Of a stretch of DNA of 64,000 bases, positions 3,228 to 56,040 are shown one piece after another. The stretch covers positions 1 to 64,000 of the IMG/VR virus record IMGVR_UViG_2974626280_000001; one strand, given 5' to 3'. The stretch is from a virus (Duplodnaviria > Caudoviricetes). The position numbers were made by a program, and so were the translations under genes. Positions within the stretch are counted from its first letter, which is position 1. Each line of letters opens with the position of its first letter. The notes beneath the pieces were generated by a model. The model was given only the letters and a program-made list of their open reading frames with translations. It made no database searches and had not been told where the DNA came from.

Positions 3228-3246
3228 AAATACACAGCCTTACATT

Positions 3247-4433: not shown

Positions 4434-4473
4434 TTTAACTCCAAAAAAGGGTGGTCGCCCACCCATACGTTAA

Positions 4474-4635: not shown

Positions 4636-4644
4636 AATATCGCC

Positions 4645-4842
4645 TTAGCGGTATGAACCGCAGTTGCACTTCTTACGTTTAAGACCGCTGCCGCAAAGGC
4701 AGGGCTTGTTACGGTCGCCGCCACTAAGCGACGGCTTACGCTCTTTCGGCTCCGCGACCGGGACCATTTTACCCCGGCGACGTAGCGCGGCGGTCGCCAG
4801 CGCGATGGTCATCGCCAGCTCTGCTTCAAACTTATTGATCAT
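4645..4842 (-). CDS. SEC-C motif protein
   Basis: RNKPCLCGSGLKRKKCNCG matches the SecA C-terminal Zn-binding motif. Confidence 0.75.
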   Translation of the reverse strand: MINKFEAELAMTIALATAALRRRGKMVPVAEPKERKPSLSGGDRNKPCLCGSGLKRKKCNCGSYR

Positions 4843-5603
4843 GGGTGCACCGTTTTCATGGGGCCGCGCGACAATGCTTCTTCAGCAGCTTCGGCAAACG
4901 TGACCTTGCGACTGCCTGGAGACAAATCATTGATTCCCTGCGTATGACTTCCGGCAGACGGCAGCGTTTCTTCAGGCACGCTAAGCTCGTTTTCGATGTC
5001 GGTGATGATGCTTTCCAGTCGCTCGATATTGCAAGAGATATAGCCTGCGGTCGCGTCCAGGTCGGCAATCAGGCCTGATGCGCAATGCACGGCTGAGCCA
5101 TTCGTACCCATCTCCATGCCTTTTGCTGACGCGCCGCTGAGGAATGAAAGGTTGCTCTCCAGCGCGTTTTCGATTTGGTTTAACTGGGTCAAAACGCGAG
5201 TGTATTGCGACAGCACGCCGTCCAGGTTGAAAGCAACATCGTCGAATGAAAAATCAACGCCTGGACCTTCAAAAGACGGCTTATTTGACTTGGCCAACTC
5301 CGTCGCGCTTGACAGCTTGTTTCGTTGCCCGGTTAACGTCGAAAGCCGCTCGATGGCCTTGTTGATTTCGTCGAGATGCGTGAAGTGCAAGCGCAGGTCG
5401 CTGATGAGGCCCGACATCAGACCGCTGTAAGCGAGTTGCGCACGTTTCGGCGGCTGTTGCTCTTGCGGGCCAGCTTGGCTGAAAGGCTCATCTGCAATCA
5501 CGCCGCCCAGGTGCGCGTTGATCATATCGAGACGGTACAGAACCTGGGAGATTCGACCGACGTTATTTGAAAAACCGTTCTTTGCTAAAATCAGACTTGA
5601 CAT
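4839..5603 (-). CDS. Hypothetical helical/coiled-coil protein with internal duplication
   Basis: 254 aa; two similar halves (SGLISDL vs SGLIADL). Confidence 0.75.
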   Translation of the reverse strand: MSSLILAKNGFSNNVGRISQVLYRLDMINAHLGGVIADEPFSQAGPQEQQPPKRAQLAYSGLMSGLISDLRLHFTHLDEINKAIERLSTLTGQRNKLSSATELAKSNKPSFEGPGVDFSFDDVAFNLDGVLSQYTRVLTQLNQIENALESNLSFLSGASAKGMEMGTNGSAVHCASGLIADLDATAGYISCNIERLESIITDIENELSVPEETLPSAGSHTQGINDLSPGSRKVTFAEAAEEALSRGPMKTVHP

Positions 5604-5700: not shown

Positions 5701-7515
5701 TTATCGATAGAGCGGTATGTATGCAACCTTACCATTTCTGTCCAGAATTTGCATGTATTCCGCTGGCGCTGCCGTACTGGATGGCGTACCCGGAGGAGAG
5801 GATAGCTGGAGTACCCCGCCTGCGGCCCCTACGCCAGCGCCGTTGGCGTGCTTGGCAAAGCGATACTCTGGCAGCCTGATAGGGTTTTCGCCAGCCGCTG
5901 CCACAGGCTCGTTGGCAGATTTGGTGCCGTCTTTCAGGAACATGGACGGCGTTCCGGCGTCCTGACGGTTTACGCCGTTGCTGTACACGTTGACGTCGAA
6001 CCGTCCACACCACTGCGGCAGCTTGATCCACAATTTGACGTAGGTGTTGTAAGGTGCCTGATAGCGGATGTCGGTGACTCCTGCCATGCCTTCGTGACTG
6101 GCCGTGACGATAGGTTCATTGCCAGAGCCGCGCTGGATTTTGATCGTTGTCTTGCCCGGTTCGCCGTTGCGCTCGATAGTTGGACTTGCGCCAGCGGAGC
6201 TATAGCCGTTTTTGGCGTGGATATCGACTTCCCATTGCTGGCCTACGGACGGTGAGAAGAATTGACCGATGCAGACCCAGGTGGACGCGCTGGTGTTGTT
6301 ATCACCGTGCAGCGTGCCGCCCTGAAACAGTACGCGGATAGGCTGTTCAAAGCTGGTGGCCTGAGCCGATTCGGTGATGTAACCGTCTTCGTAGTTGCTG
6401 AGCCAGCGCTGCTCTGGCGTACCACGAACGACCGCGCCGCCCGTTTGCAGCTCAATGTTGTGCTTGCCGCGCGTACCCTTCAAGTTGAGAGGGAACTTGC
6501 TGGACTCGATGGACAGTTTGTGGATATCCCAGCCGCCGTTGCTCAGGTCGCCAGGTCCGTTGGAGTGCTCAATCCAGAGGTTACGAATCAGCGACTGCGT
6601 GCAGCGCGGCATGTTCAGACCGTTATCCGACAGCATGTACTGCAGGTTGCCGTTGGTGATTTCGACCGCCGTTGAGTGGTCCCACTTGCCTTGCGGGTCA
6701 TTAGACCAGAGGATGCGAATGAAATCGTCGTAAATACGGTTGCAATAAATCTGGTCGAAGTGAGTGTCCAGAGTATCGAGTAAATCGAAAACGATGCCGC
6801 CGGAGTTGATTGCGCGGAAGCAGCTCACGTTGACGAACTGACCAGCCGTTTCGACGTTGGCGAAGAAAGGTTGCTTGTTACTTGGCGTGGTGAAATTCCA
6901 GCGCATACCGCCATCGGTGATGGTGGAAGTCGCCTGACCATCCCACTCGATGCCCTGAATGGCGAAGCGACGCGCGGAGCACTTGATCACTGGGGTATCT
7001 GACTTATCCGACACAATTCGCGTCTCCGGCATCAGGCCGAAGTCGACGCGCGGCCCGGTGAACTGAAGGTAGTCGATTTCGGCGGTGCCGTAGTCGTAAG
7101 GCGACACGAAACTGACGCCTGAAGGGAACTTAACGCCGATACGACGCGCCATGCGGTGGTTGCCGTCGATGTTCCGACCGTAGTTGAACATGCGTAAAAC
7201 GGCTGGCAGGTCGTCGTTGATGCCGTCCATGTACGCGCCGAAGTGGGTGATGTTGATTTCGTCGCTGAAGCTGGAGCAAATGCGCTCCCAGTGGAACTTG
7301 TCGCCAGCAGCGTGCATACCGCCGTCGTCCGCGCCGCTGGTCAGGTGGCCCAGGAAGTAACCGCCGCCAGCCGGGTTGCCTGCCAACAGGTGATAGCTGG
7401 AGAGGTAAAGGATTTGCCCTTCAAACTCTGGCTTTCGGGTGCGGAGAGATTCGAAAGATGAAGCAGTGATTGCCTTTTGCAAATCGGACGTTTCAAGAAT
7501 CGTTTTGAGTTCCAT
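5701..7515 (-). CDS. Tailspike-fold polysaccharide (EPS/capsule) depolymerase
   Basis: ~604 aa from the ATG with GAGGG RBS. Tailspike N-domain motif LRTRKPEFEGQILYL...GGGYF, DGINDDLPA beta-helix start, and WDHSTAVEITNGNLQ/PRCTQSLIRNLWIEH segments recalled from Erwinia-phage/AmsF-WceF-type enzymes. Confidence 0.7.
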   Translation of the reverse strand: MELKTILETSDLQKAITASSFESLRTRKPEFEGQILYLSSYHLLAGNPAGGGYFLGHLTSGADDGGMHAAGDKFHWERICSSFSDEINITHFGAYMDGINDDLPAVLRMFNYGRNIDGNHRMARRIGVKFPSGVSFVSPYDYGTAEIDYLQFTGPRVDFGLMPETRIVSDKSDTPVIKCSARRFAIQGIEWDGQATSTITDGGMRWNFTTPSNKQPFFANVETAGQFVNVSCFRAINSGGIVFDLLDTLDTHFDQIYCNRIYDDFIRILWSNDPQGKWDHSTAVEITNGNLQYMLSDNGLNMPRCTQSLIRNLWIEHSNGPGDLSNGGWDIHKLSIESSKFPLNLKGTRGKHNIELQTGGAVVRGTPEQRWLSNYEDGYITESAQATSFEQPIRVLFQGGTLHGDNNTSASTWVCIGQFFSPSVGQQWEVDIHAKNGYSSAGASPTIERNGEPGKTTIKIQRGSGNEPIVTASHEGMAGVTDIRYQAPYNTYVKLWIKLPQWCGRFDVNVYSNGVNRQDAGTPSMFLKDGTKSANEPVAAAGENPIRLPEYRFAKHANGAGVGAAGGVLQLSSPPGTPSSTAAPAEYMQILDRNGKVAYIPLYR

Positions 7516-10100: not shown

Positions 10101-11501
10101 ATGTATCAACTGAATCCTGCGCTAAGAGATGTTTGGAACACTAAAGCACGCTACAAGGTTGTGTATGGTGGCCGTGCATCTTCCAAGTCGCATGATGCAG
10201 CAGGTTTCGCCGTATTCCTTGCAGCCAACTTCCGGCTGAAGTTCCTTTGCGTACGTCAATTCCAGAATAAAATTTCGGAATCGGTTTACACGCTCCTCAA
10301 AGACAAGATTGAAAACTCTGAGTTCAAGGACGAGTTCAACTTGTTAAAGAACAGTATTGAGCACAAAGTTACCAAATCTGAATTCCTTTTCTACGGTATC
10401 GCACGCAACGTTGACGAAATCAAGTCAACGGAAGGTGTCGACGTTCTCTGGCTCGAAGAAGCGCACGCACTTACTGAAGAGCAGTGGGACATCATTGAAC
10501 CAACAATCCGTAAAGAAGGCAGTGAGATTTGGATAATCTTTAACCCGGATGAAGAAGCTGATTTTGTGTATCAGAATTTCATCGTGCGCCCTAAAAAGAA
10601 TTCTATCGTCAGAAAGATTAATTGGCAAGAGAATCCTTTCTTATCGCAAACGATGATTGACGTTATCAAGGACATGTACGACCGCGACCCGAAAAAGGCA
10701 GAGCACGTGTATGGCGGAGAGCCGAAGACTGGCGGCGACAAGTCTGTTATCAACCGCGCATTCGTCAAGGCCGCGCTCAACTTGCACAAGCACCCAACCA
10801 AAGGTTGGGAAGCAACCGGAATGCGCCGAATCGGCTATGACGTAGCGGACGACGGCGGAGACGTCAACGCAATGGCGAAAGGCGTTGGGAACGTGCTGCA
10901 AGTCATCGAGACTTGGGAAGGGCTTGAGGATGAGATGCTCAAGTCAGCCGCGCGTGTCTACAAGTCAGCAAAAGAGCTGAATGCTACAGTGACATATGAC
11001 TCCGTCGGTATCGGCGCGGCCATCGGCTCGAAGTTTTCTGAGTTCAACGAAGACAACCCAGGCGGGTGGCAGATTGAATACGACGCATTCAACGCTGGTG
11101 GGCGCGTTCACAATCCTGATGACGTTTACCTTGAGCTGCCGCACGTTAAGATTCTTAACAAAGACCACTTTTCTAACGTTAAGGCTCAAAAGTGGGTAGA
11201 GGTTGCAGAGCGCATGCGCGCATCTTTCGAATACCTCAACGACCCTAACGCCAACCCGGATAACACCGACGTGTCTGAGCTTTGCTCAATCGATACTGAA
11301 GGATGGACTGAAGAAGAGATTGAGCAATTTCTCTTTGAGATTTCTGCGCCGAGAAAAGATATCGACCGAACCGGGAAATTCAAGGTGGAATCCAAGCCTG
11401 ATATGTTAAAGCGCGGCATCAAATCCCCAAACAAGGCTGATGCCGCTATCATGTTTTGGATGAAGCCTATGCGCGCAGCAGCAGGATTCTTCGACTTTTA
11501 A
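10101..11501 (+). CDS. terL: Terminase large subunit (PBSX-like)
   Basis: Walker A GGRASSKSH, Walker B LEEAH, nuclease motifs GYDVADDGGD and NKADA. Start taken as MYQLNP. Confidence 0.92.
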   Translation: MYQLNPALRDVWNTKARYKVVYGGRASSKSHDAAGFAVFLAANFRLKFLCVRQFQNKISESVYTLLKDKIENSEFKDEFNLLKNSIEHKVTKSEFLFYGIARNVDEIKSTEGVDVLWLEEAHALTEEQWDIIEPTIRKEGSEIWIIFNPDEEADFVYQNFIVRPKKNSIVRKINWQENPFLSQTMIDVIKDMYDRDPKKAEHVYGGEPKTGGDKSVINRAFVKAALNLHKHPTKGWEATGMRRIGYDVADDGGDVNAMAKGVGNVLQVIETWEGLEDEMLKSAARVYKSAKELNATVTYDSVGIGAAIGSKFSEFNEDNPGGWQIEYDAFNAGGRVHNPDDVYLELPHVKILNKDHFSNVKAQKWVEVAERMRASFEYLNDPNANPDNTDVSELCSIDTEGWTEEEIEQFLFEISAPRKDIDRTGKFKVESKPDMLKRGIKSPNKADAAIMFWMKPMRAAAGFFDF

Positions 11502-12247
11502 TCGTCGGAAATCTTGCGCTGGATTTCAACGTCTTTCGCGCGCCTTTTGCCTTCAGTAAACGCAATTATGCTTTCCGGGTCTTCTGCTGAGAATTTTGGC
11601 TGCTTCGCTTTTGAGTAATTAGCTTCACCAAAATACTCTGCGACCGCCGCGCCTTTCACGACAACCAATGACGTTCCAGTAGAAGTCGTAAGCTTCTGGC
11701 GCTCTACGCGCAAATCGTTGAGCCTTTTACACAGCGTCTCACACGCTCCCAGCTTAAACTTGGAGCCTAACCCTACCGGATAGCGACCCTCGTGCCCTAT
11801 CTCAACGAGCCATTCAGCGCACAGCTTGTTTACCAGGACGAGCAAGCTTTCATACATTTCAACTGCCATGTCAACGTCGTGCTTGAATCCGCGAAAAACG
11901 ATGCGATTACCCCAAACTTTCTTGTAAGCCTTGAAGTGCTTTTCCGCGCCTTCAAGAACCGCTTGGCAGTCATTAAATTCGGCTACCGCGACGGACAAAA
12001 TGTTCATGTGATGCGGTATGTTGGCGAATGTGCGCGTCGCAGGCTGCTTGGAGAATTCACGGTCTTCTCCGTTAACGTTGAGGATGTCAACCTTTGTCAG
12101 TTGATACTCATCCATCAGCTTACGCGCTTTCGCCATCGCGTTGGCGGCTTCGTGCTCATTGGCACTGCCTTCAGCCAGACGGAACAACTTTTCAATTTTC
12201 AACTTGATGCGGTCAACGCCGCTGGATTTAGCGTATTCATTGCTCAT
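11498..12247 (-). CDS. DUF2786-family protein
   Basis: KIEKLFRLAEGSANEHEAANAMAKARKLMDEY N-terminal motif. Confidence 0.75.
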   Translation of the reverse strand: MSNEYAKSSGVDRIKLKIEKLFRLAEGSANEHEAANAMAKARKLMDEYQLTKVDILNVNGEDREFSKQPATRTFANIPHHMNILSVAVAEFNDCQAVLEGAEKHFKAYKKVWGNRIVFRGFKHDVDMAVEMYESLLVLVNKLCAEWLVEIGHEGRYPVGLGSKFKLGACETLCKRLNDLRVERQKLTTSTGTSLVVVKGAAVAEYFGEANYSKAKQPKFSAEDPESIIAFTEGKRRAKDVEIQRKISDD

Positions 12248-41028: not shown

Positions 41029-41652
41029 TCAGGCGTGGTCGTGCAGACCGTGCGCGGCGGTTGAGCTATTAAGGCCCAGCTCTTCAACAATCCGCTCATA
41101 GTTCGCGTCATCGGACTTGACAAAGATGCCGTTATACATGACGCCTTTGCGGTCTTTGATTTCCAAATAAGCATGCTCGACGCAATCTTCAACGCGCAGG
41201 CCGTACTCATTACAAATCAGCTGTAGACCGTAAATCATAAGCCCGATAGCAGCGTAAGCATCATCAGGGTTATTCTTCTTAATCGCGTCAGCCAACCGAC
41301 CCTGGCCCATGCCCGCAATCAATAACCCGTGGTGCGGCACCTGAGTGAAAACCGCGAAGCTTTGCGAGCCGTAGATGGTCTTAATATCCAGCCCCATTTG
41401 CGCTGAAACATTGACCAGGACCACAAAGGAGTCGCCGATGGCGTCTTTAAGAGACGTCACAATCAGCTTTTTACGCTGATGAGTGTCGCTGCCGTGATAC
41501 GTCCAGATTTCGTAAATGGCGGTTGAAATCTCGTTAGAGAACTCACTCACCAGCTTGACGAATTGGTCTGCGGCCTTGCCGCCGCCGATAATGTTGCGGG
41601 CTTTAGACCATTCCAGAATCAGATTGAACAGCACGAAAATTTGTGGAGTCAT
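41029..41652 (-). CDS. MazG-like NTP pyrophosphohydrolase
   Basis: WSKARNI...QFVKLVSE...KDAIGD...AYLEIKDRKG pattern. Confidence 0.75.
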   Translation of the reverse strand: MTPQIFVLFNLILEWSKARNIIGGGKAADQFVKLVSEFSNEISTAIYEIWTYHGSDTHQRKKLIVTSLKDAIGDSFVVLVNVSAQMGLDIKTIYGSQSFAVFTQVPHHGLLIAGMGQGRLADAIKKNNPDDAYAAIGLMIYGLQLICNEYGLRVEDCVEHAYLEIKDRKGVMYNGIFVKSDDANYERIVEELGLNSSTAAHGLHDHA

Positions 41653-45535: not shown

Positions 45536-45939
45536 AACTTCTCCAAATAGCTTACTATCGGCTCTTTGCCGATAATTAATGTGGCCATAGACAATAACTC
45601 GTCTTTGGTCATTGAGTCCAGAGGGTGCGACGGATTTAATAATATAAAGTCGTTTGCGACCCGAATCAATACGAATGCGTGACCTTTCCAGTCGCGGCAT
45701 TGTCTGGCGAATCCGAGTTGGCCGCGCTCGAATTTACCGCGCAAAGGAAGAGTAGAGGCCCGTTTGGGCCAATCCTCCAGGTACTTGTTTTCGAGCCAGA
45801 ACATAGTGCCGTTGCGGTTTTGCCCGATGGTGTCGGGCATCGCTTCAGCTATGCTGTTCTCAATCCTCTTCAGGATCAGTTTCCGGCCCGCTGCTTTCTT
45901 CATCGGTTCGTACGTCTTCTTTTGTTCTGTCGTCGGCAT
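45532..45939 (-). CDS. PD-(D/E)xK nuclease (RecU/VRR-NUC-like)
   Basis: RIEN...MPD...FWLENK motif. Confidence 0.7.
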   Translation of the reverse strand: MPTTEQKKTYEPMKKAAGRKLILKRIENSIAEAMPDTIGQNRNGTMFWLENKYLEDWPKRASTLPLRGKFERGQLGFARQCRDWKGHAFVLIRVANDFILLNPSHPLDSMTKDELLSMATLIIGKEPIVSYLEKL

Positions 45940-48871
45940 GGCTTAGCACCCTTATGTTGTTGATAAAGAACATATCCAGACCGGAGAGTTTGAGCGCATT
46001 CATCATCACCCAAGAGCCTTTTGGCACGTTCTCTGCAATGTTACGACCCAGCCTTTCATAGTCCTGCTCTTTGATACGGAAGCGCATCGGCGAATCGCTC
46101 GAATCGTCAACGCACATAATATCGATGAACGCGGTTGGCCCTTCAATCCGTCCATCAGGTAAGTGATTCTTTTTAAGCACTTCTATGCCGCGCCTGTTAT
46201 CCCAGCGGGTGATACCCTTTTCCAGACGCTTTTTGATGCGAATCGGTTCGTTTTGGTCTGCAACGATTTTCTTAGTTATCTTGCCGATTACCAAGCCAAC
46301 TTCGCCGTCTTTAACGTCGCGCATATTCTCAGGCAGCACTTCTTTGGTACGCATCAGCGGCTTGCCATAATCCCACATCGGCTTACCATTACTGTCTTTA
46401 CGCTGCACCTTGATTAAAGTAGGCTTCTCATAGAGATGGCCGAACCGGGTGTGGGCCTCGTTAAGGTCGTTATACAGAACCTCTGCTTTCATCAGGCGGT
46501 CTTTATCGGCCTGAGTCAATACGCCGCGATTACGCTTATCGACGTACATGGCAGCCTTAGCAGGGCCATAACCTTTGGCGTTCATGATACCGCCTACCAG
46601 ACGACCGTCAGACGAAATGGTCCAGTTCATTTCGCTGTGATCAGGGTCAAGCGCGGTATAGTTAATTCCCTCTTTAGCCAGTTCACGAAGAATCGCAATG
46701 GTTTGCGTCTCATCTTTCGCTGCACGTAAACAGGCTGCGGCAAACTGTAGAGGGAAATAGCGCTTCAGGTAACAGGTCCAGTAGGTGATGATAGCGTATG
46801 ATACGGAGTGAGACTTGTTAAAGCCCCATGAACCGAATGTAACCATCTCACGCCAAATCTTTTCAGCCTGGTCCTTTGGTACGCCAGACTCAACCGCGCC
46901 GCGCACGAAGTCTTCACCCTGTTGGTTGAAGTATTCCTCACCTTTACGACCAGACATCGCCTTACGAACCGCAGAAGTCTTAACCCAGTCAAAGAGGCCA
47001 ATCTCTTTAACCACGGCCATGATCTGTTCCTGGTACAGGAATACACCGAATGTTTCGTCAAGATACGCCTTCAGCTGCGGCACGTCATAGACAACCTCTT
47101 CATCGCCTTTAGAGCGTGCGATATACTTCTGAGCCATACCGGATGCGAGCGGGCCGGGCCGCGCAAGTGCTGTCAGGTTATCGATTTTACTGAAGCGGTC
47201 GATATTAACGAAGCGGGCAACAGAGCGGACGGCGTCGCCCTCAAACTGGAAAATCCCTGACATCTTGTCCTCGTTCAGGACATCTAAAACGCTTTGATCA
47301 TCAAGGGTTAGCGAGTAGAGTTGTTCGATAGTTACCGCTCCAGTGTCGCCAATTATTCCAAGCGTACGCAGCCCAAGGGCATCGATTTTCAACAGGTCGA
47401 GATACTCGGAATCAGGCTTATCTATCTGAGCAATACCTTCCGCCGTAACGGTGCAATAATCTGATATCGGGTCATTACAGACGAGAATACCAGCAGCGTG
47501 AACGCCAGTGTGAGAAGGGTGAATCTCAAGGTCGCCCATGCAACGCGCGGCTTCAGGATATTGCTCAGAGAAGAGCTTGCCCGGTGTGGTCGTCGTCATT
47601 GTATCGTGCAGTCCTTTACCGTAACGCGCATCACCGGATGAATATTCAATCAGGGCGTTTTTGACGCTGTCTACAGCACCATAAGGAAGGCGAAAGCGCT
47701 TACTGACTACCGCCATCACGGAGTTAGCCTTGAGCGTGTTGATGTTACCCAGCTTTACGACGTTCTCTTTACCATACTTTTCTTGCAGGTAGTCGAACAC
47801 CATATAGCGTTTGGTATCCTCAAAGTCAATATCGATATCGGGTAAATCGGCGCGGCTGATATCGATAAAGCGCTGGAAAAGCAGCTTATGGGGCAGCGGG
47901 TCTACTTCGGTAATCTCCATGCAGTAGCACACCAGAGAGCCAGCAGACGAGCCGCGAGCGGGTCCAACGAGCATATGCTTTTTAGCGAACTTAACAAGGT
48001 CGGCAACCACCAGGAAGTAAGAATCAAATTTCTTGTTTTGAATCTGCTTGATTTCTTCCTGGAAACGGGCTTCATACTCCGGCGTCCACTCTTTGATGTG
48101 ACCCGCCTTTAAGCGGTACTCCATCCCCTCACGCGCCAGCGCTACCATATCACCATCGAGGTGAATAATTGGAGCCTTATTAAGAGCGCGGCCAGCAAGT
48201 GTTTCTGCCAGTCGAGTGGTTACGCCAATGGCGTCACAAAGCTCTTCATCGGTTGCAATACCTACCAAAGCAGATGTGTAGTCCTGCGCATCTTCAATAG
48301 TGCGCATACCTACAGATTCACGCGTTTCGAAAGCATAAGCAAAGTCTTTCTGCTCTTCTTTTGGAAGGTCGTTATATCCGGTGATGACCATTGGTTGCCC
48401 GGTTTCCCGGTGGGCCAATACGCCACGACGAGCGTGGAGCAACGACGACGGGTTGACGTCGATATAGTCGTACTGGTCAGGAGCCAGGAGAGCCAGCGCC
48501 CCGCCAGAGAATCGCACAACCCCTTCCAGCGCTCCGAACTCTTCAGGAGTCAGGCCGCCGTTCTGCACCGCTTTGGTGGTCGCGTTATAGAACTTGCGCA
48601 GGTCGTCTGCGAGAATCCAGGCCTTTGGACGGAAGCCAAGTCCCTGTAGACGCTCGTCGTCTACCTTGATTTGAATTTCCATCCCGAAGATGGGTTTTAT
48701 ATCGGCAGCCTTGCAGGCCTTTTCCCAGCGAACGTGACCCCAAGTATTGTTATCGACCATCGCGGCAATGGGGCAATTCAACTCTTTCAGCCGCGCAATG
48801 ATTTCGCCAGTACGGCCATAAACCTCTTTAAAGGTGTACGCGCTTCTTACGCGCAACTGAGGAAATGTCAT
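45860..48871 (-). CDS. dnaE: DNA polymerase III alpha-like (family C)
   Basis: GPARGSSAGSLVCY, LPDIDIDF, LLKIDALGL, VFLYQEQ and GFNKSH motifs. Confidence 0.95.
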   Translation of the reverse strand: MTFPQLRVRSAYTFKEVYGRTGEIIARLKELNCPIAAMVDNNTWGHVRWEKACKAADIKPIFGMEIQIKVDDERLQGLGFRPKAWILADDLRKFYNATTKAVQNGGLTPEEFGALEGVVRFSGGALALLAPDQYDYIDVNPSSLLHARRGVLAHRETGQPMVITGYNDLPKEEQKDFAYAFETRESVGMRTIEDAQDYTSALVGIATDEELCDAIGVTTRLAETLAGRALNKAPIIHLDGDMVALAREGMEYRLKAGHIKEWTPEYEARFQEEIKQIQNKKFDSYFLVVADLVKFAKKHMLVGPARGSSAGSLVCYCMEITEVDPLPHKLLFQRFIDISRADLPDIDIDFEDTKRYMVFDYLQEKYGKENVVKLGNINTLKANSVMAVVSKRFRLPYGAVDSVKNALIEYSSGDARYGKGLHDTMTTTTPGKLFSEQYPEAARCMGDLEIHPSHTGVHAAGILVCNDPISDYCTVTAEGIAQIDKPDSEYLDLLKIDALGLRTLGIIGDTGAVTIEQLYSLTLDDQSVLDVLNEDKMSGIFQFEGDAVRSVARFVNIDRFSKIDNLTALARPGPLASGMAQKYIARSKGDEEVVYDVPQLKAYLDETFGVFLYQEQIMAVVKEIGLFDWVKTSAVRKAMSGRKGEEYFNQQGEDFVRGAVESGVPKDQAEKIWREMVTFGSWGFNKSHSVSYAIITYWTCYLKRYFPLQFAAACLRAAKDETQTIAILRELAKEGINYTALDPDHSEMNWTISSDGRLVGGIMNAKGYGPAKAAMYVDKRNRGVLTQADKDRLMKAEVLYNDLNEAHTRFGHLYEKPTLIKVQRKDSNGKPMWDYGKPLMRTKEVLPENMRDVKDGEVGLVIGKITKKIVADQNEPIRIKKRLEKGITRWDNRRGIEVLKKNHLPDGRIEGPTAFIDIMCVDDSSDSPMRFRIKEQDYERLGRNIAENVPKGSWVMMNALKLSGLDMFFINNIRVLSHADDRTKEDVRTDEESSGPETDPEED

Positions 48872-48872
48872 G

Positions 48873-49415
48873 TTAATCTCCGAATATGTCGTAAACGCCT
48901 TGTGTCTGGCAAATTTTATGAAGCATCATGATATCGTCCAATGCCCTGTGCTTCTGAGTATACTTGCCTATAAACAATTCGTAAAGCTCTTGCAGCTTCA
49001 TCCTTCGACCGAATTGGGGATAGAATTGCTCAACGGTACATATTTGGATTTTAGGGAACTTCATGTCATCCAGCGTCAGGCCGATTCGACGCGCGGCATA
49101 GTCGATAATGTTTTTATCGAACGACATGTTGTGAGCAATAATGGCTTGGCCGCGACTGATGAAATCGGCTATCTGCTCATGCTGCTCTGCAAAGGTCTTG
49201 TTGACCTCAAGGTCTTCATTCGTCAACCCGGTGAGCTTTGTGATGATTTCTTCGATGATGATTTCAGGGTTGATAATCAATTCGAGGGTGTCGATGATTT
49301 CCTTTCCATCGGTAATGATTCCCGCGAATTCAATAGGGCGCGGCTGCAGGCCAAGCGGTGCCTGATGGTGAACGGTCAGGCCAGTGGTTTCGGTATCGAA
49401 TACGGTAAACAGCAT
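48873..49415 (-). CDS. dnaQ: DEDDh 3'-5' exonuclease (epsilon-like)
   Basis: DTETTG, AHNMSFD and HRALDD motifs. Confidence 0.88.
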   Translation of the reverse strand: MLFTVFDTETTGLTVHHQAPLGLQPRPIEFAGIITDGKEIIDTLELIINPEIIIEEIITKLTGLTNEDLEVNKTFAEQHEQIADFISRGQAIIAHNMSFDKNIIDYAARRIGLTLDDMKFPKIQICTVEQFYPQFGRRMKLQELYELFIGKYTQKHRALDDIMMLHKICQTQGVYDIFGD

Positions 49416-49470: not shown

Positions 49471-50016
49471 TCAACCCTTTGCTGCTGTCACGGTTGGCTC
49501 AACATACGGCGTGTAATTGGTATTCAGGCGGACGATGAACTTGAGGTCAACGCCAAGCAGGTCGTAAGTGTCAAAGATTACGTAGTTGTAACGGCGCTCG
49601 TCTTTGATGGCTTCGTTGGTGTGGGTCTGCGTCATAACTTCTTGCGCAATCGCCACGCCTTTAGACGCGAAGTAAGCCCGGTAAGACAGCAACTCGTCAT
49701 TGGTGACGTGCATACCAAGGTGGCTTACACAATGCGGACGGTTCTCCAGCCAGTTGTTGCCTTTGGTGTAGTTAAGCACCTCCAGCTCCAGCGGCTTACC
49801 AGCTTCGACATCAGAGCCGCTGCCAGCCTGATAGTTGAAGTTCAGCTCTGCAATGTTAGTGCCGTTGGAGCCGTTAATCGCGCCAGTGGCGGTGACGACG
49901 TCCGTCACCCAACTGGTCAGGCCCAGGTCGCGTAGGATTTCAATGGCGACGTCGCTGTCAGGAGCGTTGAGAGCAATCTGCTGGATTTCGAATTTTTTCA
50001 CTTTAATCTTTTCCAT
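49471..50016 (-). CDS. VOC/glyoxalase-fold protein
   Basis: IQQIALNA, LELEVLNY, VSHLGMHV and DLKFI strands; start MEKIK after AAGGTG. Confidence 0.65.
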   Translation of the reverse strand: MEKIKVKKFEIQQIALNAPDSDVAIEILRDLGLTSWVTDVVTATGAINGSNGTNIAELNFNYQAGSGSDVEAGKPLELEVLNYTKGNNWLENRPHCVSHLGMHVTNDELLSYRAYFASKGVAIAQEVMTQTHTNEAIKDERRYNYVIFDTYDLLGVDLKFIVRLNTNYTPYVEPTVTAAKG

Positions 50017-50026
50017 TTTATTCACC

Positions 50027-50152
50027 TTAAATCTTGCAAGCGTCGCCGCAATCGTTATCGTCAGCGGACTCTTCAAATTCAACTTCTTTACGATTGTTGA
50101 CGCGCTCTACAGCTTCGTCAACGCCAGGGATTTCAAAATCGTCTTCGCCCAT
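50027..50152 (-). CDS. 41-aa acidic dithiol peptide resembling the ribonucleotide reductase R1 C-terminal tail (absent from ORF track)
   Basis: Manual translation MGEDDFEIPGVDEAVERVNNRKEVEFEESADDNDCGDACKI; AAGGT RBS; fills the SDR-VOC gap. Confidence 0.8.
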   Translation of the reverse strand: MGEDDFEIPGVDEAVERVNNRKEVEFEESADDNDCGDACKI

Positions 50153-50160
50153 AGTTTACC

Positions 50161-50838
50161 TTATTTACCGAAGGGGATGTCAGTACCAGACATGTACTTA
50201 TAGCTGCCTGATTCGATGAGGTGGCCGATGAATTCCGCGATGGACTCCGGCGGCGTTTCCAGACCGTGCATCAGAGCCTTGCGTTGGTACTCCGCAGCAA
50301 ACTCTGGCGTCCAGCCGCGAACCTTGCAGACGTTCTCTTCAATCTGCTTGGACATGCCAGTACCAGCCAGCTTGTTAGGGCTGATAGAGAACACCGTGAT
50401 GCCGTGCTTAGGCGTCAGTTCATGCGCCATCTGCTTAGTGATCATCAGACCCGCTGCTTTAGACGCGTTGTAAGCCAGGCTGGACGTCATAGGGATGTGC
50501 GCAGCGTTTGAAACGATGTTGATAACGAAGCCTTTCGACGCAATGAGTTGCGGCAGAACCGCCTGAGTCATAGCGACGAAAGAAAATGCGTTAACGTGCA
50601 TCACATGGTCGAACTGCTCAACACTTACTTCTTCAAACCACTCGTTGCGGTTGATACCGGCACAGTTGATCAGACCGTCGACTTTGTCGAGTTCACTTAC
50701 CCACTTTGGCGGGTCTTGAACAGTCTGGTTAGGAGCAACGTTGCGGTCAAATTCGATAACCTGAATTCCGTTGAACTCCAGGACAGAAGCGATTTCACGA
50801 CCTAAACCAGAAGAAGAGCCTGTTACGATAACTTTCAT
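50161..50838 (-). CDS. Classical short-chain dehydrogenase/reductase
   Basis: TGSSSGLG, NCAG and YNASK motifs. Confidence 0.9.
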   Translation of the reverse strand: MKVIVTGSSSGLGREIASVLEFNGIQVIEFDRNVAPNQTVQDPPKWVSELDKVDGLINCAGINRNEWFEEVSVEQFDHVMHVNAFSFVAMTQAVLPQLIASKGFVINIVSNAAHIPMTSSLAYNASKAAGLMITKQMAHELTPKHGITVFSISPNKLAGTGMSKQIEENVCKVRGWTPEFAAEYQRKALMHGLETPPESIAEFIGHLIESGSYKYMSGTDIPFGK

Positions 50839-50900
50839 TATTATTTCCCGTTCGTTTAAGATGAGATAAGAATACGCCCCTTTGGAAGAGGCGTCAACCT

Positions 50901-52001
50901 TTATTTGATTTTGATAGTGTGCGTATTAATCAGCGGCTCCAGCATCGCTGCATACACGGTTAAATCCAGAATCGAGTCCTGATGAGTCAGACCGCTGTTG
51001 GTGAAGCGCGTCAACTTAACAATAAGCAGCTCGAAGAGGTGCCACATGTTATAGTCTTCCTGCGTCTTCAACTCAACGCCATTCGGAAACAGCGCGGCCA
51101 TCACCTTACCGACGACCAGCGCGTTGTCTTTATAGACGGCGTTACGCTCACGGAACGTTGCGGCGGCTTCTTCCAGCACGTCAGCCGCGATACGGCCTGA
51201 CTTGTATTGGGCGCGAAGAGCATCGAGCGTGTCAACAGGTTGAGTTCGCTCCAGCTTCTCCGGGACTTCCACCGGGCGCACCGCCGCGCGGGTGTAGTAG
51301 TCGCCCAACTCGACGGCGCTGCAAGGGTATGCCAGAGTTGAGTCATCTGTTTCCTTCAACAGCGCCGCAATTAGAGGGTTAGTGGCGCAGCGCATTGTGG
51401 TGTGCGGCTTGAAGACGAAGTCGTGGCGTCCTTTGAATCTGACAGGGAACGCACTATCAACCTCTTGAGATTCGCCTTTGCGAATTTTCGCAATAATGTG
51501 CTCGTTGCCGCCAGCAATGACCATCTTTTTGGTCACCAGCCAAGGCTCAATAATAGCAGCATCAAATTCACGGTACATCTTAATAACGTCAGGGTGATCA
51601 TCGAATGCGATGATGTGCTCATACTCATGGCCAGGCATCAAAAGGAACTTTTCCAGCATCTGGCGCTTCAGCGTCGCACTTGGCACGCCGTCTTCGTGAT
51701 CAGCTCGCATAGCCAGAACTTTGTACTGGTCATCGGAAATACCGATAACATGATTCAACTGGTATTTGGTCACGCCAAAAATCCTCTGCGGCCTTGCGGT
51801 AAAAAAGGCGATATCCATGCCAGCCGCTAAGGCGTAGGCGACGAGGTGAGAGCCGATTGGCAGCGCCGTATCTTTAGCCATCTGCTCTTCAGAATGATAC
51901 GCGTCAAAGTTCCGATTAGCCCAGTCGATGAGCGGTACACGGTGGGAATCGTCGATAGTGCAGCCGTCAAGGTCAAAGATAGCCAGTGTTCTGTTAGTCA
52001 T
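50901..52001 (-). CDS. HAD phosphatase fused to a DUF6378-like all-alpha domain
   Basis: FDLDGCT, FTAR and FDDHPD motifs; C-terminal LEEAAATFRERNAVY...KLTRF...DSILDLTVYAAML. Confidence 0.75.
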   Translation of the reverse strand: MTNRTLAIFDLDGCTIDDSHRVPLIDWANRNFDAYHSEEQMAKDTALPIGSHLVAYALAAGMDIAFFTARPQRIFGVTKYQLNHVIGISDDQYKVLAMRADHEDGVPSATLKRQMLEKFLLMPGHEYEHIIAFDDHPDVIKMYREFDAAIIEPWLVTKKMVIAGGNEHIIAKIRKGESQEVDSAFPVRFKGRHDFVFKPHTTMRCATNPLIAALLKETDDSTLAYPCSAVELGDYYTRAAVRPVEVPEKLERTQPVDTLDALRAQYKSGRIAADVLEEAAATFRERNAVYKDNALVVGKVMAALFPNGVELKTQEDYNMWHLFELLIVKLTRFTNSGLTHQDSILDLTVYAAMLEPLINTHTIKIK

Positions 52002-52288
52002 TCTACACGCCCTATTGATTTAGAATATTGATAGTAAAAGTCAATCTTATTTAACTTTGCCATAATCTTATCTTCATTAGGCTCAAAGTTAAAGCCGAAT
52101 TTATCAGTCAGCAACGAAAGTACAGCAAACAAGTCTTGCACTTCATTTTGCAGACGTTCACGATTCGGCGGCGTGCTGTCGTTCATACGCTCATCAAGGC
52201 CGAAGCGGTCGCACTTGGAGCATTCCTGGGCTATCTCAGCACACTCTTCAGCAAGTAGCCCAAGAAGGAATTGATCACGTGTTTTCAT
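51998..52288 (-). CDS. MazG-like nucleotide pyrophosphohydrolase
   Basis: LAEECAEIAQ...NEVQDL (EExxE...ExxD). Confidence 0.75.
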   Translation of the reverse strand: MKTRDQFLLGLLAEECAEIAQECSKCDRFGLDERMNDSTPPNRERLQNEVQDLFAVLSLLTDKFGFNFEPNEDKIMAKLNKIDFYYQYSKSIGRVE

Positions 52289-53121
52289 CAGCCGCTCGAC
52301 TTGCCATTGTTGGCTACCGGGTTATTGGTCTGAACTTCAATATTCCAGAAGTCCTGTTTAAGTTTTGCTTTCTCCGCTTCCAGGTCCATCCACGGACGCC
52401 AGAAGGGGCAATGAGCCTTACCGTGGCGAGGGAAAGCGCACTGGCCAGTGGCTACGCAAGCGACTTGAAGCAGCGGCTCAGCCCACCAATGGACTTCGAG
52501 AATCAAGCGGCGCATCTCACGGAAAACCTCTTGGTACTCTCCTTGTGTACGCGTACAGAGGCGAGTCTTGGCGGTCTCAGAGAGCGTGCGCAGGTTGAAC
52601 TTCGCCTGAATACGTGTCGACATGTTAGACGGCATGATACCACGAGCGTCTTGCAGTTCGGCCCCTGCCGCGATAAGCTCGGCATACAGCGCGTCAATGG
52701 TCGCCATGCCATCGTCCCATAGTTCGGCACGATTTTGCTTGGCGCGAAGATTGTTGATTCGCTCCTCATCATTGGAGCTAAAAACATCCACTGTTTGATC
52801 AGGATTAAGGTGCTCAAACGCTTTCGGACGAACCGCATCAAACGCTGAAATTTCAAGTGCGCGGCTGGTTTCCTGCTGATAAGCTCCGGTGCGCGTTCTC
52901 ACCAATTGGTGAGTAAAGTTCTTGCTCACTCCAGAGATATCAAAAACGTAATCGACGAATTCAAACGGCGACTTGATGGTGTCCAGCATATACTTAAAGT
53001 GGTCTGCCTTCTCCTGCTCAGTCATAGTCTTTGGGTCAGCGCCGCGCATACGTGCGGACTTAGTACCCAGCAAAAGCTCCAGCGCGTTAGGAGTAACGCT
53101 AATAAGTTCAACTTTCATCAT
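52288..53121 (-). CDS. thyX: Divergent flavin-dependent thymidylate synthase (ThyX) homolog
   Basis: SPFEF, GVSKNFTHQLVRTR, QDARGIMP, NLRTL and RLCTRTQGE motifs, with non-canonical active-site residues. Confidence 0.8.
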   Translation of the reverse strand: MMKVELISVTPNALELLLGTKSARMRGADPKTMTEQEKADHFKYMLDTIKSPFEFVDYVFDISGVSKNFTHQLVRTRTGAYQQETSRALEISAFDAVRPKAFEHLNPDQTVDVFSSNDEERINNLRAKQNRAELWDDGMATIDALYAELIAAGAELQDARGIMPSNMSTRIQAKFNLRTLSETAKTRLCTRTQGEYQEVFREMRRLILEVHWWAEPLLQVACVATGQCAFPRHGKAHCPFWRPWMDLEAEKAKLKQDFWNIEVQTNNPVANNGKSSG

Positions 53122-53534
53122 TTGAAGTCCACAATGTCGTATTCAGAAGTCAGGCCGCAAGTATAGATTTTCGACCCATATTTAGTCACTACCTGGGAAC
53201 CGTCGCCAAGAACGATTACCAATAATTCTGCGCTCTTGCGCGTCTCAGGATGGAAGAAGGCATCACGATTCCCTTCCAACTTAATTGGCGCGGCGTCTTC
53301 GATTACAATTTGCTGGCCGGACGGTAAGATGACCCGGAAATCAGCGCCACCGTAGCCAGCAGGCGTGGCCGCAAGCGTCATCTGGTGGTTAAGGTCGGCA
53401 CTGGCACAGGCGTAGTCCCAGCTCTTGTTTACGGCGCGTACCTGGGCGTCAGCGCCCGGTGCGAAGAAGCCGAAGAGGAAAGCGGCCAGAAGCAGCAGTC
53501 CATACCAACGTTCGCCTTTAAGTAAGTTTTTCAT
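53118..53534 (-). CDS. Hypothetical exported protein
   Basis: 138 aa; signal peptide and Cys pair; own promoter. Confidence 0.75.
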   Translation of the reverse strand: MKNLLKGERWYGLLLLAAFLFGFFAPGADAQVRAVNKSWDYACASADLNHQMTLAATPAGYGGADFRVILPSGQQIVIEDAAPIKLEGNRDAFFHPETRKSAELLVIVLGDGSQVVTKYGSKIYTCGLTSEYDIVDFK

Positions 53535-53562
53535 CTTACACCTCCGATTAGTTGTTAAAGTG

Positions 53563-53591
53563 ATTATCGCTCATCCTTGAGCAGAAAGCAA
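53563..53591 (-). promoter_or_regulatory. Promoter with palindromic spacer
   Basis: TTGCTT-N17-GATAAT; GCTCA-AGGA-TGAGC inverted repeat in the spacer. Confidence 0.75.
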
Positions 53592-53598
53592 GTTTATT

Positions 53599-53976
53599 TT
53601 ACCACTCTTCACGACCGGTGACGATGCACGGAATAAGCTTGCTACCATCGACGACGATAGACGCAGTATTGTTGCGCATATCCTTCTTGGTGATTCCGAT
53701 GCTTACTACATGGTTGCCGTTGAAAGCGCTCTGCATGACGTAAACTTCACCGTCAGCATTAATGCCACGGCGCGTTCCGCCATTGGTTGGGTAGTTAACG
53801 CCGTTGTAATCGATAGCGTTTAAGATACCCTGCGGAGTGCGCGATTGCGAGTACAGGAGAGGTTTGCCGCCGCAAATCATACGGAAGTAAACAGCGCTTG
53901 ACTCAGCATGAACGGCTACGGGGCAAAGGGTTGAGGCGGCGACGATAGCGGCTGCTGCAATAATAAAACGTTTCAT
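53599..53976 (-). CDS. Hypothetical exported protein
   Basis: Start MKRFIIAAAA; signal peptide; Cys pair. Confidence 0.75.
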   Translation of the reverse strand: MKRFIIAAAAIVAASTLCPVAVHAESSAVYFRMICGGKPLLYSQSRTPQGILNAIDYNGVNYPTNGGTRRGINADGEVYVMQSAFNGNHVVSIGITKKDMRNNTASIVVDGSKLIPCIVTGREEW

Positions 53977-54012
53977 TTTTAATTCCTTCAATTGTTTTGT
54001 TTCGATAGAATG

Positions 54013-54041
54013 ATTATCGCTCATCCTTGAGCGTACGTCAA
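54013..54041 (-). promoter_or_regulatory. Promoter with palindromic spacer
   Basis: TTGACG-N17-GATAAT; 22 bp identical to 53561-53582. Confidence 0.8.
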
Positions 54042-54047
54042 GCACTT

Positions 54048-55010
54048 TTATTTAAAATTTTTGAGACGTTGATAATTAGTCGCGTGGATAAGGTTATCGA
54101 CCTTTAAAACGTCGTCGGCTACGTCGTCCAGTAACAGGTTTCGCCATGTAGCGAAGCGACCGATAGAGAAGACGCGGAATTGAGACGTCAACTCATAGAG
54201 TACCGCCTGTCGCAAGTCCTGCGGCATGTCGACAATCTTACCATAGCGCTGATCAACGACTTCGGCAGACGCGATGTCGACCTGAGTTGGGTGCAGACCG
54301 AACTTGCCAGCTATGTACGCCAGCTCGATATCCGTATCCATATAACTGCCGCCGTTCTCTATCATTTCGACAATCATAGTGTCGCCAGTGATAGAGGCGC
54401 GATAGGTCTTAAGGTCTTCGGCAGGGAAATAGATTGTTTGGTAAATGTCGCATGGAACATTCACCTTGAAGCGGTGAACGCTGATGCTCTGACGGGCGAA
54501 CGCGAAAGGGATTTGCTCATCGTGTTCGAGGTTGGTAATCTTCATCATCACCTGCATAGGGATAGTGCTGATGATTGAAGGGCGGTTATCGAGGTTGAAA
54601 TTGAAAGCCTCATCAATCGGAGTCTCAAATAAGATTCGGTCCTCACCAACCTCTTCAATGAGTCGGTCATAGAAGTCGTCAGGCGCAATGTAGCGCGTCG
54701 CCGTCTCCAGCTTCATGATGCTGCGGCCAGAGAGCTGCCCTGTTACCTTCAGCGAGTACATGTTGGCAAGGTTGAGCGGGCAAGTGCCCTGATGCATCTG
54801 GTTGCCGTAAACAACGGCCTTATCCACGCGTACGGCGCGGAAAGGAATTCCGGTCAGCTTTGATACCTCTTCGCCGCGAAAACGCAGGAGAGCGCGGTGC
54901 TGTGGCATTCTTGGGCCTGCTTCATACACGGGCGCTTTCTTGAAGTGGCAAGCGGTGATAAGGCCAGCAAGTCCTGCCCCGGCGATTACGATTGATTTGG
55001 TCAGGTTCAT
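54048..55010 (-). CDS. FAD-dependent oxidoreductase, UDP-galactopyranose-mutase/amine-oxidase-like
   Basis: N-terminal GAGLAG...VYE dinucleotide fold; C-terminal SIGRFATWR motif. Confidence 0.7.
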   Translation of the reverse strand: MNLTKSIVIAGAGLAGLITACHFKKAPVYEAGPRMPQHRALLRFRGEEVSKLTGIPFRAVRVDKAVVYGNQMHQGTCPLNLANMYSLKVTGQLSGRSIMKLETATRYIAPDDFYDRLIEEVGEDRILFETPIDEAFNFNLDNRPSIISTIPMQVMMKITNLEHDEQIPFAFARQSISVHRFKVNVPCDIYQTIYFPAEDLKTYRASITGDTMIVEMIENGGSYMDTDIELAYIAGKFGLHPTQVDIASAEVVDQRYGKIVDMPQDLRQAVLYELTSQFRVFSIGRFATWRNLLLDDVADDVLKVDNLIHATNYQRLKNFK

Positions 55011-55152: not shown

Positions 55153-56040
55153 TCAGTCGTTATCGAAGCGCTGAACGGATTCGTCATCTTCAAAAGTGTC
55201 GGCGTCACCGTCTTCAACTTCTGGCTGCCCGGTCTGATCAACGGTGTGGAACACCAGGTGACCCATCTCTTCCAGCTTGCTCAGGTAAGAGCGGACGCTT
55301 GCGCCGTACAGCAGGCCTTTCACTTCTTCGCCGAACTCGTCGATGTTGATCAGTGTGCCATCGCTGTATTTTTCACGAATCACCGCCAGCACTTTGCCGC
55401 GCGTTGAGTGCTCCTGCGGGTTCGACAGACCTTCGCCGGTATACTGGAAGTGGGTCGATTTGGTACGGCGGCCACCTTCAGCTTTCTTAGCAGCTTTACG
55501 CTCTTCCAGGATGGCACGGCGCTCTTCGGCTTCCTGCTTACGCGCAGCCTTATCGGCTTCGGCCTGCTGACGTTTCGCTTCACGCTCAGCATCACGCTCA
55601 GCTTTGCGGTCCGCTTTAGCCTGATCACGTTCAGCCTTTTTAGCAGCTTTCGCTTCTTCACGCGCCTTAGCACGCTCTTCAGCCTGCTCAGCTTTAGCAG
55701 CTTCGCGCTCAGCTTTCTTGGCTTCTTTCTCTTCTTCACGCTGCTTAGCGCGTTCAGCTTTAGCGGCTTCACGCTCTTCAGCTTTAGCAGCTGCTTTAGC
55801 TTCGCGCTCTTTGGCTTTCTCTTCAGCCTGAGCTGCGCGCTTCTCTTCCTTCTCCTGCGCCTTAGCAGCGCGGGCATCGGCCTGTTCCTGACGCTTGGCT
55901 TCGCGCTTGGCTTCAGCTTCTTTACGCGCTGCTTCACGCGCTTCAGCCTTTTCCTGGCGCTCTGCTTCACGCTTAGCGCGGCGCTCCGCTGCTTCAGCGG
56001 CTTTCTGTTCTTTCGATTTAACCTGGATTGGTTCGCTCAT
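55153..56040 (-). CDS. Charged single-alpha-helix protein with a C-terminal winged-helix-like domain
   Basis: About 175 aa of A/E/K/R repeats, then STRGKVLAVIREK...SVRSYLSKLEEMGHL. Confidence 0.75.
   Translation of the reverse strand: MSEPIQVKSKEQKAAEAAERRAKREAERQEKAEAREAARKEAEAKREAKRQEQADARAAKAQEKEEKRAAQAEEKAKEREAKAAAKAEEREAAKAERAKQREEEKEAKKAEREAAKAEQAEERAKAREEAKAAKKAERDQAKADRKAERDAEREAKRQQAEADKAARKQEAEERRAILEERKAAKKAEGGRRTKSTHFQYTGEGLSNPQEHSTRGKVLAVIREKYSDGTLINIDEFGEEVKGLLYGASVRSYLSKLEEMGHLVFHTVDQTGQPEVEDGDADTFEDDESVQRFDND

Follow-up and report, generated by a model that had tools for sequence, protein, structure and literature searches.

A block of co-directional genes at positions 49471-55010 of a 64-kb window, part of the complete 73,168-bp virus record IMGVR_UViG_2974626280_000001 (direct terminal repeats of ~3 kb), on balance appears to make the TG-context thymidine hypermodification common to PB1-like phages. 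Its central members are a flavoprotein with the fold of UDP-galactopyranose mutase (UGM) and a variant of the thymidylate synthase ThyX, whose link to the modification and chemistry we infer from several lines of evidence. A modified thymidine has been measured in the Pseudomonas phages F8 and 14-1, which share the flavoprotein, ThyX-like and HAD genes with the window, and this is joined by a TGATC footprint in the window genome, the restriction profile of Wifcevirus, the elimination of known modification genes, the co-occurrence of the flavoprotein and ThyX-like genes, and the altered active site of the ThyX-like protein. Nucleotide and protein searches placed the virus among the PB1-like myoviruses of Gram-negative hosts, with Pantoea phage PA1 as its nearest relative, followed by the Serratia Myosmarvirus MTx, the E. 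coli Wifcevirus members WFC and ManiWeber, and Aeromonas phage Gekk3-15, with the Pseudomonas Pbunavirus phages further off.

Modified Thymidine in Related Phages

The DNA of Pbunavirus was long held to be unmodified until LC-MS (liquid chromatography coupled to mass spectrometry) found it to be hypermodified (Yee et al., 2025, bioRxiv 10.1101/2025.03.31.646159). The new nucleosides, of 362 Da in F8 and 390 Da in 14-1, are sugar-derived thymidines that replace about one-quarter of the thymidines and occur in TG motifs; F8 DNA was left uncut by five enzymes with TG in their recognition sites and was cut by five enzymes without it (bioRxiv 10.1101/2025.03.31.646159). A 2026 preprint adds that native nanopore sequencing fails on Pbunavirus, while PCR-amplified DNA succeeds. 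No biosynthetic genes are named by Yee et al. (2025) or in the later papers citing that work, and a paper on T dioxygenases makes no mention of PB1-like phages. A first-pass annotation of the window had described the block as an undescribed base-modification pathway. Given the LC-MS results in F8 and 14-1, DNA base modification in the PB1-like group is very likely, but it had already been reported for Pbunavirus in 2025, and only the assignment of genes to it remains.

F8 and 14-1 share the flavoprotein, the ThyX-like protein and the HAD fusion in the same synteny, with identities to the window proteins of ~40% for the flavoprotein and ~55% for the ThyX-like protein. The Pbunavirus system therefore resembles that of the window in belonging to the same phage supergroup, in the synteny of the replication module, in these three orthologs and in the TG dependence that the window genome displays as a footprint; it differs in that the window phage also has SDR and VOC genes, so that the final structure of its modification may differ.

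The measured masses agree with more than one structure. By arithmetic, 362.13 equals dT + C4H8O4, which is dU + pentose - water + 2H and equally 5-hydroxymethyl-dU (5-hmdU) + tetritol - water, while 390.13 equals dT + C5H8O5, which is dU + hexose - water and equally 5-hmdU + pentose - water. Because each mass matches both formulas, mass alone cannot separate a C-linked polyol from an O-linked 5-hmdU derivative. The earlier prediction of a polyol- or sugar-type product agrees with the thymidine derivatives found in the relatives by LC-MS, and its C-linkage is a matter that mass leaves undecidable. If the F8 base were C-linked, it would carry the same five-carbon side chain at C5 as the 5-(4,5-dihydroxypentyl)uracil of Bacillus phage SP-15, with more hydroxyls.

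Comparison of the F8 and 14-1 proteins gave no clear determinant of the difference between 362 and 390. The core enzymes are 94-97% identical, and the most divergent proteins were ORF70 (57%), ORF58 and ORF60 (78%), and the HAD fusion (81%). ORF70 (4085-5281 and 3985-5289 in the two loci compared) has a CxxCxGxG zinc-finger-like motif, belongs to no enzyme family and has no counterpart in the window; its neighbors ORF71 and ORF69 are more than 90% identical between the two phages (91 and 99.6%, respectively).

A TGATC Footprint in the Window Genome

The tetramer GATC, which is counter-selected in enterobacterial phages, is depleted about threefold in the window (79 observed, 250 expected), and at each of the 79 sites one strand or both has a 5' T: 59 are of the form TGATCA, 20 are flanked on one side and none is unflanked. 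Examples lie at positions 448, 4836, 50439, 52272 and 54250, and the hexamers AGATCT, CGATCG and GGATCC are absent from the window. Over the full 73,168-bp genome, 84 of 84 GATC sites read TGATC on at least one strand, for which a context-aware null predicts a fraction of 0.53 (p=8e-24). Of all T in this genome, 25.3% stand before a G. The same footprint is present in relatives from hosts with Dam and MutH, namely ManiWeber (104/104), MTx (63/65), WFC (26/27) and Gekk3-15 (18/19), and is missing from phages of hosts that lack Dam/MutH, where PB1, F8 and 14-1 have 44-55% and the actinophage and rhizobiophage loci about half. Phage lambda, a control with a Dam+ host and no such module, has 60 of 116 sites in this context (52%, p=0.78).

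In the window, the values for two further palindromic tetramers of the form G...C, GCGC and GGCC, were at the null, and GTAC had a mild excess of TG flanks (48% vs. 37%, p=0.001) that is far weaker than that of GATC. There is no conservation of the sequence surrounding the 59 TGATCA sites, and the EcoRI sites in the window are not enriched for TG flanks. A test based on six-base palindromes was set aside as evidence for TG: the 16 that occur at most once in the whole genome (11 absent, 5 present once) all lack TG/CA (p=0.005), but the trend is not specific, as lambda shows a weaker one in the same direction (p=0.03). Most of these 16 palindromes contain CC/GG, and CTAG is depleted 12-fold across the genome.

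Cleavage by MutH and by nucleases of the MboI/DpnII/Sau3AI class falls immediately 5' of the G in GATC. A bulky substituent on T in TG would occupy this scissile junction, and one protected strand would suffice against a double-strand break. The case for TG-dependent protection in the window phage is indirect and comes from the footprint. We consider it very probable that this phage carries a protective feature on T in TG.

The Wifcevirus Restriction Profile

According to its published profile, Wifcevirus is resistant to every restriction system tried except EcoP1_I. The EcoP1_I site, AGACC, contains neither TG nor CA, while the EcoKI and EcoAI-type sites contain one or the other. In the whole ManiWeber genome, 17 of 19 EcoRI sites and all four EcoRV sites have a T directly before them on one strand or both. 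The numbers of sites counted in ManiWeber match the published ones for EcoKI, EcoCFT_I, EcoRI, EcoRV and EcoP1_I. CACAG, which we take to be the EcoCFT_II site, is present in 92 copies, equal to the published EcoCFT_II count, a number shared by 5 of 512 pentamers. A model of modification at TG therefore fits the Wifcevirus profile, which its authors left unexplained.

An Altered ThyX and a Flavoprotein of UGM Fold

In the normal ThyX route, a methylene is passed from flavin N5 to dUMP, and the resulting exocyclic methylene is then reduced. The ThyX-like protein of the window scores 95.5 bits against the Thy1 domain (cut-off 24.8, E 4.7e-27) and matches T. maritima ThyX at just E 3.5e-4. As in the canonical enzymes of T. 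maritima and M. tuberculosis, it has the Thy1 fold and the arginines that bind dUMP: R75, R77, R87, R160 and R187 are invariant and align with R78, R80, R90, R147 and R174 of ThyX. It is unlike them at further active-site positions. The RHR of the ThyX signature RHR...S is replaced by RTR, which is invariant in 24 ThyX-like homologs, and becomes RNR in the proteins of Rhizobium phages and RQR in those from phages of Mycobacterium, Gordonia and Microbacterium. When aligned by profile with solved ThyX structures, the window protein has Ile49 at the position of His53, Thr76 at His79, Ala88 at Tyr91 and Arg191 at His178; in the T. maritima enzyme, His53 belongs to the folate/NADPH site and His178 to the flavin site. 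All of the ThyX-like proteins compared, whether of PB1 type or from rhizobiophages or actinophages, lack the RHR histidine (T, N or Q in its place) and any equivalent of His53 or His178. The earlier description of this ThyX as divergent was borne out.

The window protein also differs from canonical ThyX in an added C-terminal extension with invariant cysteines. Four cysteines (C189, C222, C228 and C238) are invariant in the 24 PB1-type members, which suggests a metal site. Three of them lie within the extension, and the actinophage and rhizobiophage versions have none of the four.

The flavoprotein has no match to any Pfam family at E<=0.01, and hence none to the sequence family of UGM, GLF (PF03275); its GxGxxG motif is invariant across 34 homologs. 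An AlphaFold2 model (pLDDT 87) had as its top structural match the T. cruzi UGM 4dsg_A (VIA Z 21.0, 307 residues aligned, root-mean-square deviation 3.7), with a Foldseek TMq of 0.69 to UGM; protoporphyrinogen oxidases (Z ~18) and amine oxidases (Z ~16) followed. The label "UGM-like" is consequently fair for the fold, but not for the function: UGM, a protein that binds FAD (flavin adenine dinucleotide), is the best structural match, yet the window protein is ~45-150 residues shorter and the two families of oxidases score nearly as well. The chemistry of UGM proceeds through a flavin-N5 sugar iminium, which parallels the methylene relay of ThyX. A precedent for a flavoprotein acting on a polymer is offered by TrmFO/MnmG, two-domain FAD enzymes that alkylate uracil C5 on a polynucleotide, RNA (PMC8989533). 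No sequence match or top structural match to these enzymes was seen, and in the window system the substrate would be DNA and the added group a sugar.

Distribution of the Gene Pair

The flavoprotein has 2784 homologs, mostly from phage contigs of ~70 kb, and is present in 360 phage records. Flavoprotein and ThyX-like matches are spread over the genera in nearly the same way, both with Pseudomonas 292, Escherichia 27, Serratia 9, Xanthomonas 6, Pbunalikevirus 4 and Vibrio 2. The 206-kb Rhizobium phages carry the two genes at a distance of 1.6 kb from each other and close to a HAD gene. In phages of Mycobacterium, Gordonia and Microbacterium, the position equivalent to that of the flavoprotein is taken by an FAD-Rossmann oxidoreductase of 268-287 amino acids, which in Krampus is directly upstream of the ThyX-like and DnaE genes and in Hawkeye and TinyMiny is accompanied by an NT5C nucleotidase and an SDR beside DnaE, with the ThyX-like gene a few kb away. 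TinyMiny also has a VOC homolog in its oxidoreductase/SDR block; Hawkeye gp72, considered as another VOC relative, has no detectable relation. DnaE is near the module in the PB1-like phages viewed and in all of the actinophage versions viewed, and was not seen at the Rhizobium phage locus viewed. The flavoprotein/ThyX-like pair co-occurs across four unrelated phage lineages, in line with the co-occurrence anticipated in the first-pass annotation, and forms a conserved core that HAD and MazG-like hydrolases usually accompany.

Two further genes were noted in the actinophage versions. In phages of Microbacterium, a gene that stands immediately upstream of that for the FAD oxidoreductase (6687-7232; 3230-3778 of the TinyMiny locus) weakly matches a pyrimidine-dimer DNA glycosylase in its N-terminal part (E 0.003-0.015), and its product could be a DNA-level partner in that version of the module. 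In TinyMiny, a GT2 glycosyltransferase gene (11032-12108 of its locus) comes right behind DnaE, with the oxidoreductase block on one side and the ThyX-like gene on the other; no GT2 gene occurs in the window genome.

Searches for Other Modification Genes

Known pathways of thymidine hypermodification use a ThyA-type dUMP hydroxymethylase, the DNA kinase 5-HMUDK and an aGPT-Pplase transferase, and do not involve ThyX (PMC5889632; PMC8989533). Searches of the whole 73,168-bp genome gave no match to ThyA (PF00303), for which the control matched in 10 of 14 genomes, and none to TET/JBP (PF12851), dioxygenases that could be an alternative source of 5-hmU, for which just one control genome gave a match, itself below the cut-off. 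Models for GT1, GT2, radical-SAM, Dam, and N6/N4 and C5 methyltransferases, each of which matched in control genomes, likewise found nothing in the genome, and the sole match of AAA_33, the only kinase model searched and one that also matched in control genomes, was the P-loop of a VapE-type primase-helicase. The earlier observation that the window contains no recognizable glycosyltransferase or kinase thus holds genome-wide for GT1, GT2 and AAA_33. The other replication and early genes that were scanned consisted of primases, helicases, a ligase and small open reading frames (ORFs), and the 73-kb genome yielded no further candidate gene of enzyme size.

The proposed system and those based on 5-hmdU are alike in combining a gene of the thymidylate-synthase family with hydrolases that shape nucleotide pools, and in a partial, context-dependent replacement of T. 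They are unlike in that the window genome gave no ThyA, AAA_33-type P-loop kinase, TET/JBP or radical-SAM match (aGPT-Pplase was not searched), and in that the added group comes from an amino acid or polyamine in those systems and would be sugar-derived here.

Organization of the Block and Its Accessory Genes

All of the genes listed for the block in the first-pass annotation were found, in one direction on the minus strand, with dnaQ and then dnaE downstream (Table 1). Most of them abut or overlap by 1-4 bases.

Table 1. Predicted features of the block and its surroundings (positions are those of the window).
Feature	Position	Strand	Basis or remark
Terminator-like hairpin	55123-55105	-	Strong; 7 G-C pairs + T run, upstream of flavoprotein gene
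Promoter-like site	55073-55045	-	Consensus match only; just upstream of flavoprotein gene
320-aa FAD-Rossmann flavoprotein, core module member	54048-55010	-	phrog_4828; UGM/protoporphyrinogen-oxidase/amine-oxidase type fold
Small signal-peptide protein	53599-54045	-	Likely start near 53976; no family found
Second small signal-peptide protein	53118-53534	-	No family found
ThyX-like protein without conserved histidines, core module member	52288-53121	-	Pfam Thy1 (PF02511)
96-aa MazG-like all-alpha NTP pyrophosphohydrolase	51998-52288	-	phrog_4856 1.3e-22; Pfam MazG 0.0045, sub-threshold
HAD (DxDxT) phosphatase, PNKP/nucleotidase type, with middle region and C-terminal MazG/DUF6378-like domain	50901-52001	-	
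Classical SDR oxidoreductase	50161-50838	-	Pfam adh_short 128.5 bits, 2.9e-37; TGxxxGxG and YxxxK motifs
41-aa ORF, acidic CxxxC tail ending DCGDACKI	50027-50152	-	Real gene uncertain
VOC (glyoxalase/dioxygenase-fold) protein	49471-50016	-	Atlas structure match
DnaQ-type 3'-5' exonuclease	48873-49415	-	Pfam RNase_T 5e-25
DnaE-type replicative polymerase	45860-48871	-	Gene follows dnaQ
Second MazG-like pyrophosphatase	41029-41652	-	phrog_1992 2.8e-45

Upstream of the flavoprotein gene, the window encodes a 295-aa protein (55153-56040, minus strand; phrog_4765) that has a long repeat region rich in Lys, Glu and Ala as well as a small globular domain at the C-terminus and is annotated as "TolA-like" in relatives. 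In the five PB1-like relatives viewed (MTx, PB1/F8/14-1, WFC/ManiWeber and Gekk3-15), its gene stands directly upstream of that for the flavoprotein. A terminator separates the two genes in both the window and WFC, where it is annotated at the same place as the hairpin in the window.

Of the hydrolases, the MazG-like protein of the block is fused to the following HAD gene in MTx and Gekk3-15, giving orthologs of 474 and 477 amino acids. The HAD protein reaches 26.3 bits against HAD_PNKP (cut-off 27.6) and 4e-35 against phrog_4889, and its actinophage counterparts are 5'-deoxynucleotidases of the NT5C type. It had been described as a HAD plus DUF6378-like fusion; a HAD with a C-terminal domain was confirmed, and the likeness of that domain to DUF6378 is weak (E 0.025). 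The second MazG-like gene, at 41029, is real, as had been noted, and is kept in MTx, F8 and ManiWeber.

The SDR occurs in phages of the Wifce-, Myosmar- and Carpasina types as well as in the actinophage modules, and is absent from Pbunavirus; matches to solved structures were generic and gave no guide to its substrate. The VOC protein, which is found in 53 phage records and is also absent from Pbunavirus, matches Glyoxalase_4 clusters of the ESM Atlas (TM 0.72-0.80), while its match to Pfam Glyoxalase_4 is weak (E 0.018, below cut-off). It adjoins the SDR in five relatives viewed: MTx, WFC, ManiWeber, Gekk3-15 and Microbacterium phage TinyMiny. PB1, F8 and 14-1 make the modification without either protein, which removes both from the core steps to which they had been assigned. 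From their distribution, the SDR and VOC genes are lineage-specific accessory genes that are linked to each other.

Between these two genes is the 41-aa ORF, which had been called a dithiol peptide. The ORF is present and its tail resembles the C-terminus of E. coli NrdA, but it has no conserved counterpart in relatives: the short ORFs that MTx and ManiWeber have at this place bear no relation to it, and its sole other match was at E=2, in phage TH32. Two signal-peptide genes, which were not in the earlier list, are situated between the flavoprotein and ThyX-like genes, a slot that holds unrelated small genes in PB1 and WFC. Both products have clear signal peptides at the N-terminus. The two genes are variable inserts, probably outside the pathway, and may be moron or exclusion genes.

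Proposed Chemistry and Alternative Explanations

In the proposed mechanism, the ThyX-like protein and the flavoprotein would act as a pair that makes or captures an electrophilic intermediate of the 5-methylene-uracil/flavin-N5-iminium type at pyrimidine C5, and a sugar or polyol would complete the reaction instead of the folate methylene and hydride. The sugar might be coupled in place of the methylene, or a sugar hydroxyl might trap the exocyclic methylene. The HAD phosphatase and MazG-like pyrophosphatases would trim nucleotide and sugar-phosphate intermediates and pools, and the SDR and VOC proteins, where present, would modify the sugar moiety. A product restricted to TG requires that DNA sequence be read in at least one step, which means that the route is not purely pre-replicative; the enzyme working on DNA would be the flavoprotein or the extended ThyX-like protein, unless another gene supplies the sequence reading.

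Several considerations weigh against this proposal. The link from the block genes to the modification is one that we infer. The ThyX, HAD nucleotidase and MazG families act on free nucleotides, yet TG specificity needs an enzyme that works at the level of DNA, and no block protein has a recognizable DNA-binding domain. The ThyX-like protein could still work as a thymidylate synthase, and the real modifying enzyme could be hidden among the many small unannotated genes. For the actinophage versions, profile comparison aligned the PB1-type flavoprotein with the oxidoreductases at the Rossmann motif only; their homology is unproven, and the shared fold is a lead from the Atlas alone (viral neighbors of 248-284 amino acids).

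A first alternative is that the block is an ordinary nucleotide-supply module: a functional, divergent ThyX would make dTMP, the MazG and HAD proteins would sanitize pools, the flavoprotein, SDR and VOC would be auxiliary metabolic enzymes (e.g., a reductase partner of ThyX), and modification would fall to other, unrecognized genes. The Thy1 score is well over the cut-off, the module is within the block of replication genes, all of its members come from small-molecule families, annotators write "thymidylate synthase," and relatives contain more than 40 small ORFs of unknown function. Nonetheless, every member has substitutions at three conserved ThyX histidines, the folate-site one included, this ThyX variant is accompanied by the flavoprotein in unrelated phages, and the genome offers no other enzyme-sized candidate, so that we consider such a supply role unlikely. 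The wholly pre-replicative route of the first-pass annotation, in which the flavoprotein, VOC, SDR and HAD make a deoxy-aldehyde from a sugar and the ThyX variant adds it reductively to C5 of dUMP before the phage DnaE incorporates the modified dNTP, is less likely still. It accounts for the mass of 362, since dU + pentose - water + 2H is what reductive alkylation of the ThyX type would yield, and for the retained dUMP arginines, the pyrophosphatases and nucleotidase, and the proximity of DnaE in the PB1-like phages and actinophages viewed. However, random incorporation cannot yield the TG-only pattern of F8 or the all-or-none TGATC footprint of the window genome, both of which need sequence to be read on DNA, the SDR and VOC are absent where the modification was measured, and the masses fit O-linked 5-hmdU derivatives equally.

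Least probable is a footprint unrelated to covalent modification, caused by a phage or host protein that prefers or binds TGATC or by a nuclease restricted to GATC sites that have no flanking T. The footprint does record selection against GATC without a flanking T rather than the cause of that selection. The dependence on T before G nevertheless matches both the TG motif measured chemically in sister phages and the Wifcevirus restriction profile, and the lack of conservation around the 59 TGATCA sites and the lack of bias in lambda, a phage of the same host group, also speak against such an origin.

Significance

To judge from the literature that could be searched, novelty lies in the assignment of genes, the broader occurrence of the pair, the TGATC footprint and an explanation for the restriction profile of Wifcevirus. 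Pyrimidine hypermodification started by a thymidylate-synthase homolog is of a known kind, and there is a realistic chance that the chemistry here is categorically new. A broader idea, which we hold tentatively and at less than even chance, is that the pair forms a new flavin-dependent DNA-modifying machinery that adds a sugar or polyol to C5 of thymine or uracil in 5'-TG-3', by way of a flavin-iminium or exocyclic-methylene intermediate and without a hydroxymethylase, kinase, dioxygenase or glycosyltransferase, and that it also marks unrecognized hypermodifications in phages of Mycobacterium, Gordonia, Microbacterium and Rhizobium.

Of the Pseudomonas phages employed in therapy, the PB1-like ones rank among those used most, and their hypermodification was found only in 2025. 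The present analysis provides a short list of candidate genes and a simple sequence signature: GATC tolerated only as TGATC, which predicts the same modification in relatives of the E. coli, Serratia, Aeromonas and Pantoea types. Confirmation of the genes would make this the first route of thymidine hypermodification built on flavin chemistry of the ThyX type, with relevance to phage host range, to defense systems that sense modified DNA, to native long-read sequencing of phages and possibly to tools for sequence-specific derivatization of DNA.

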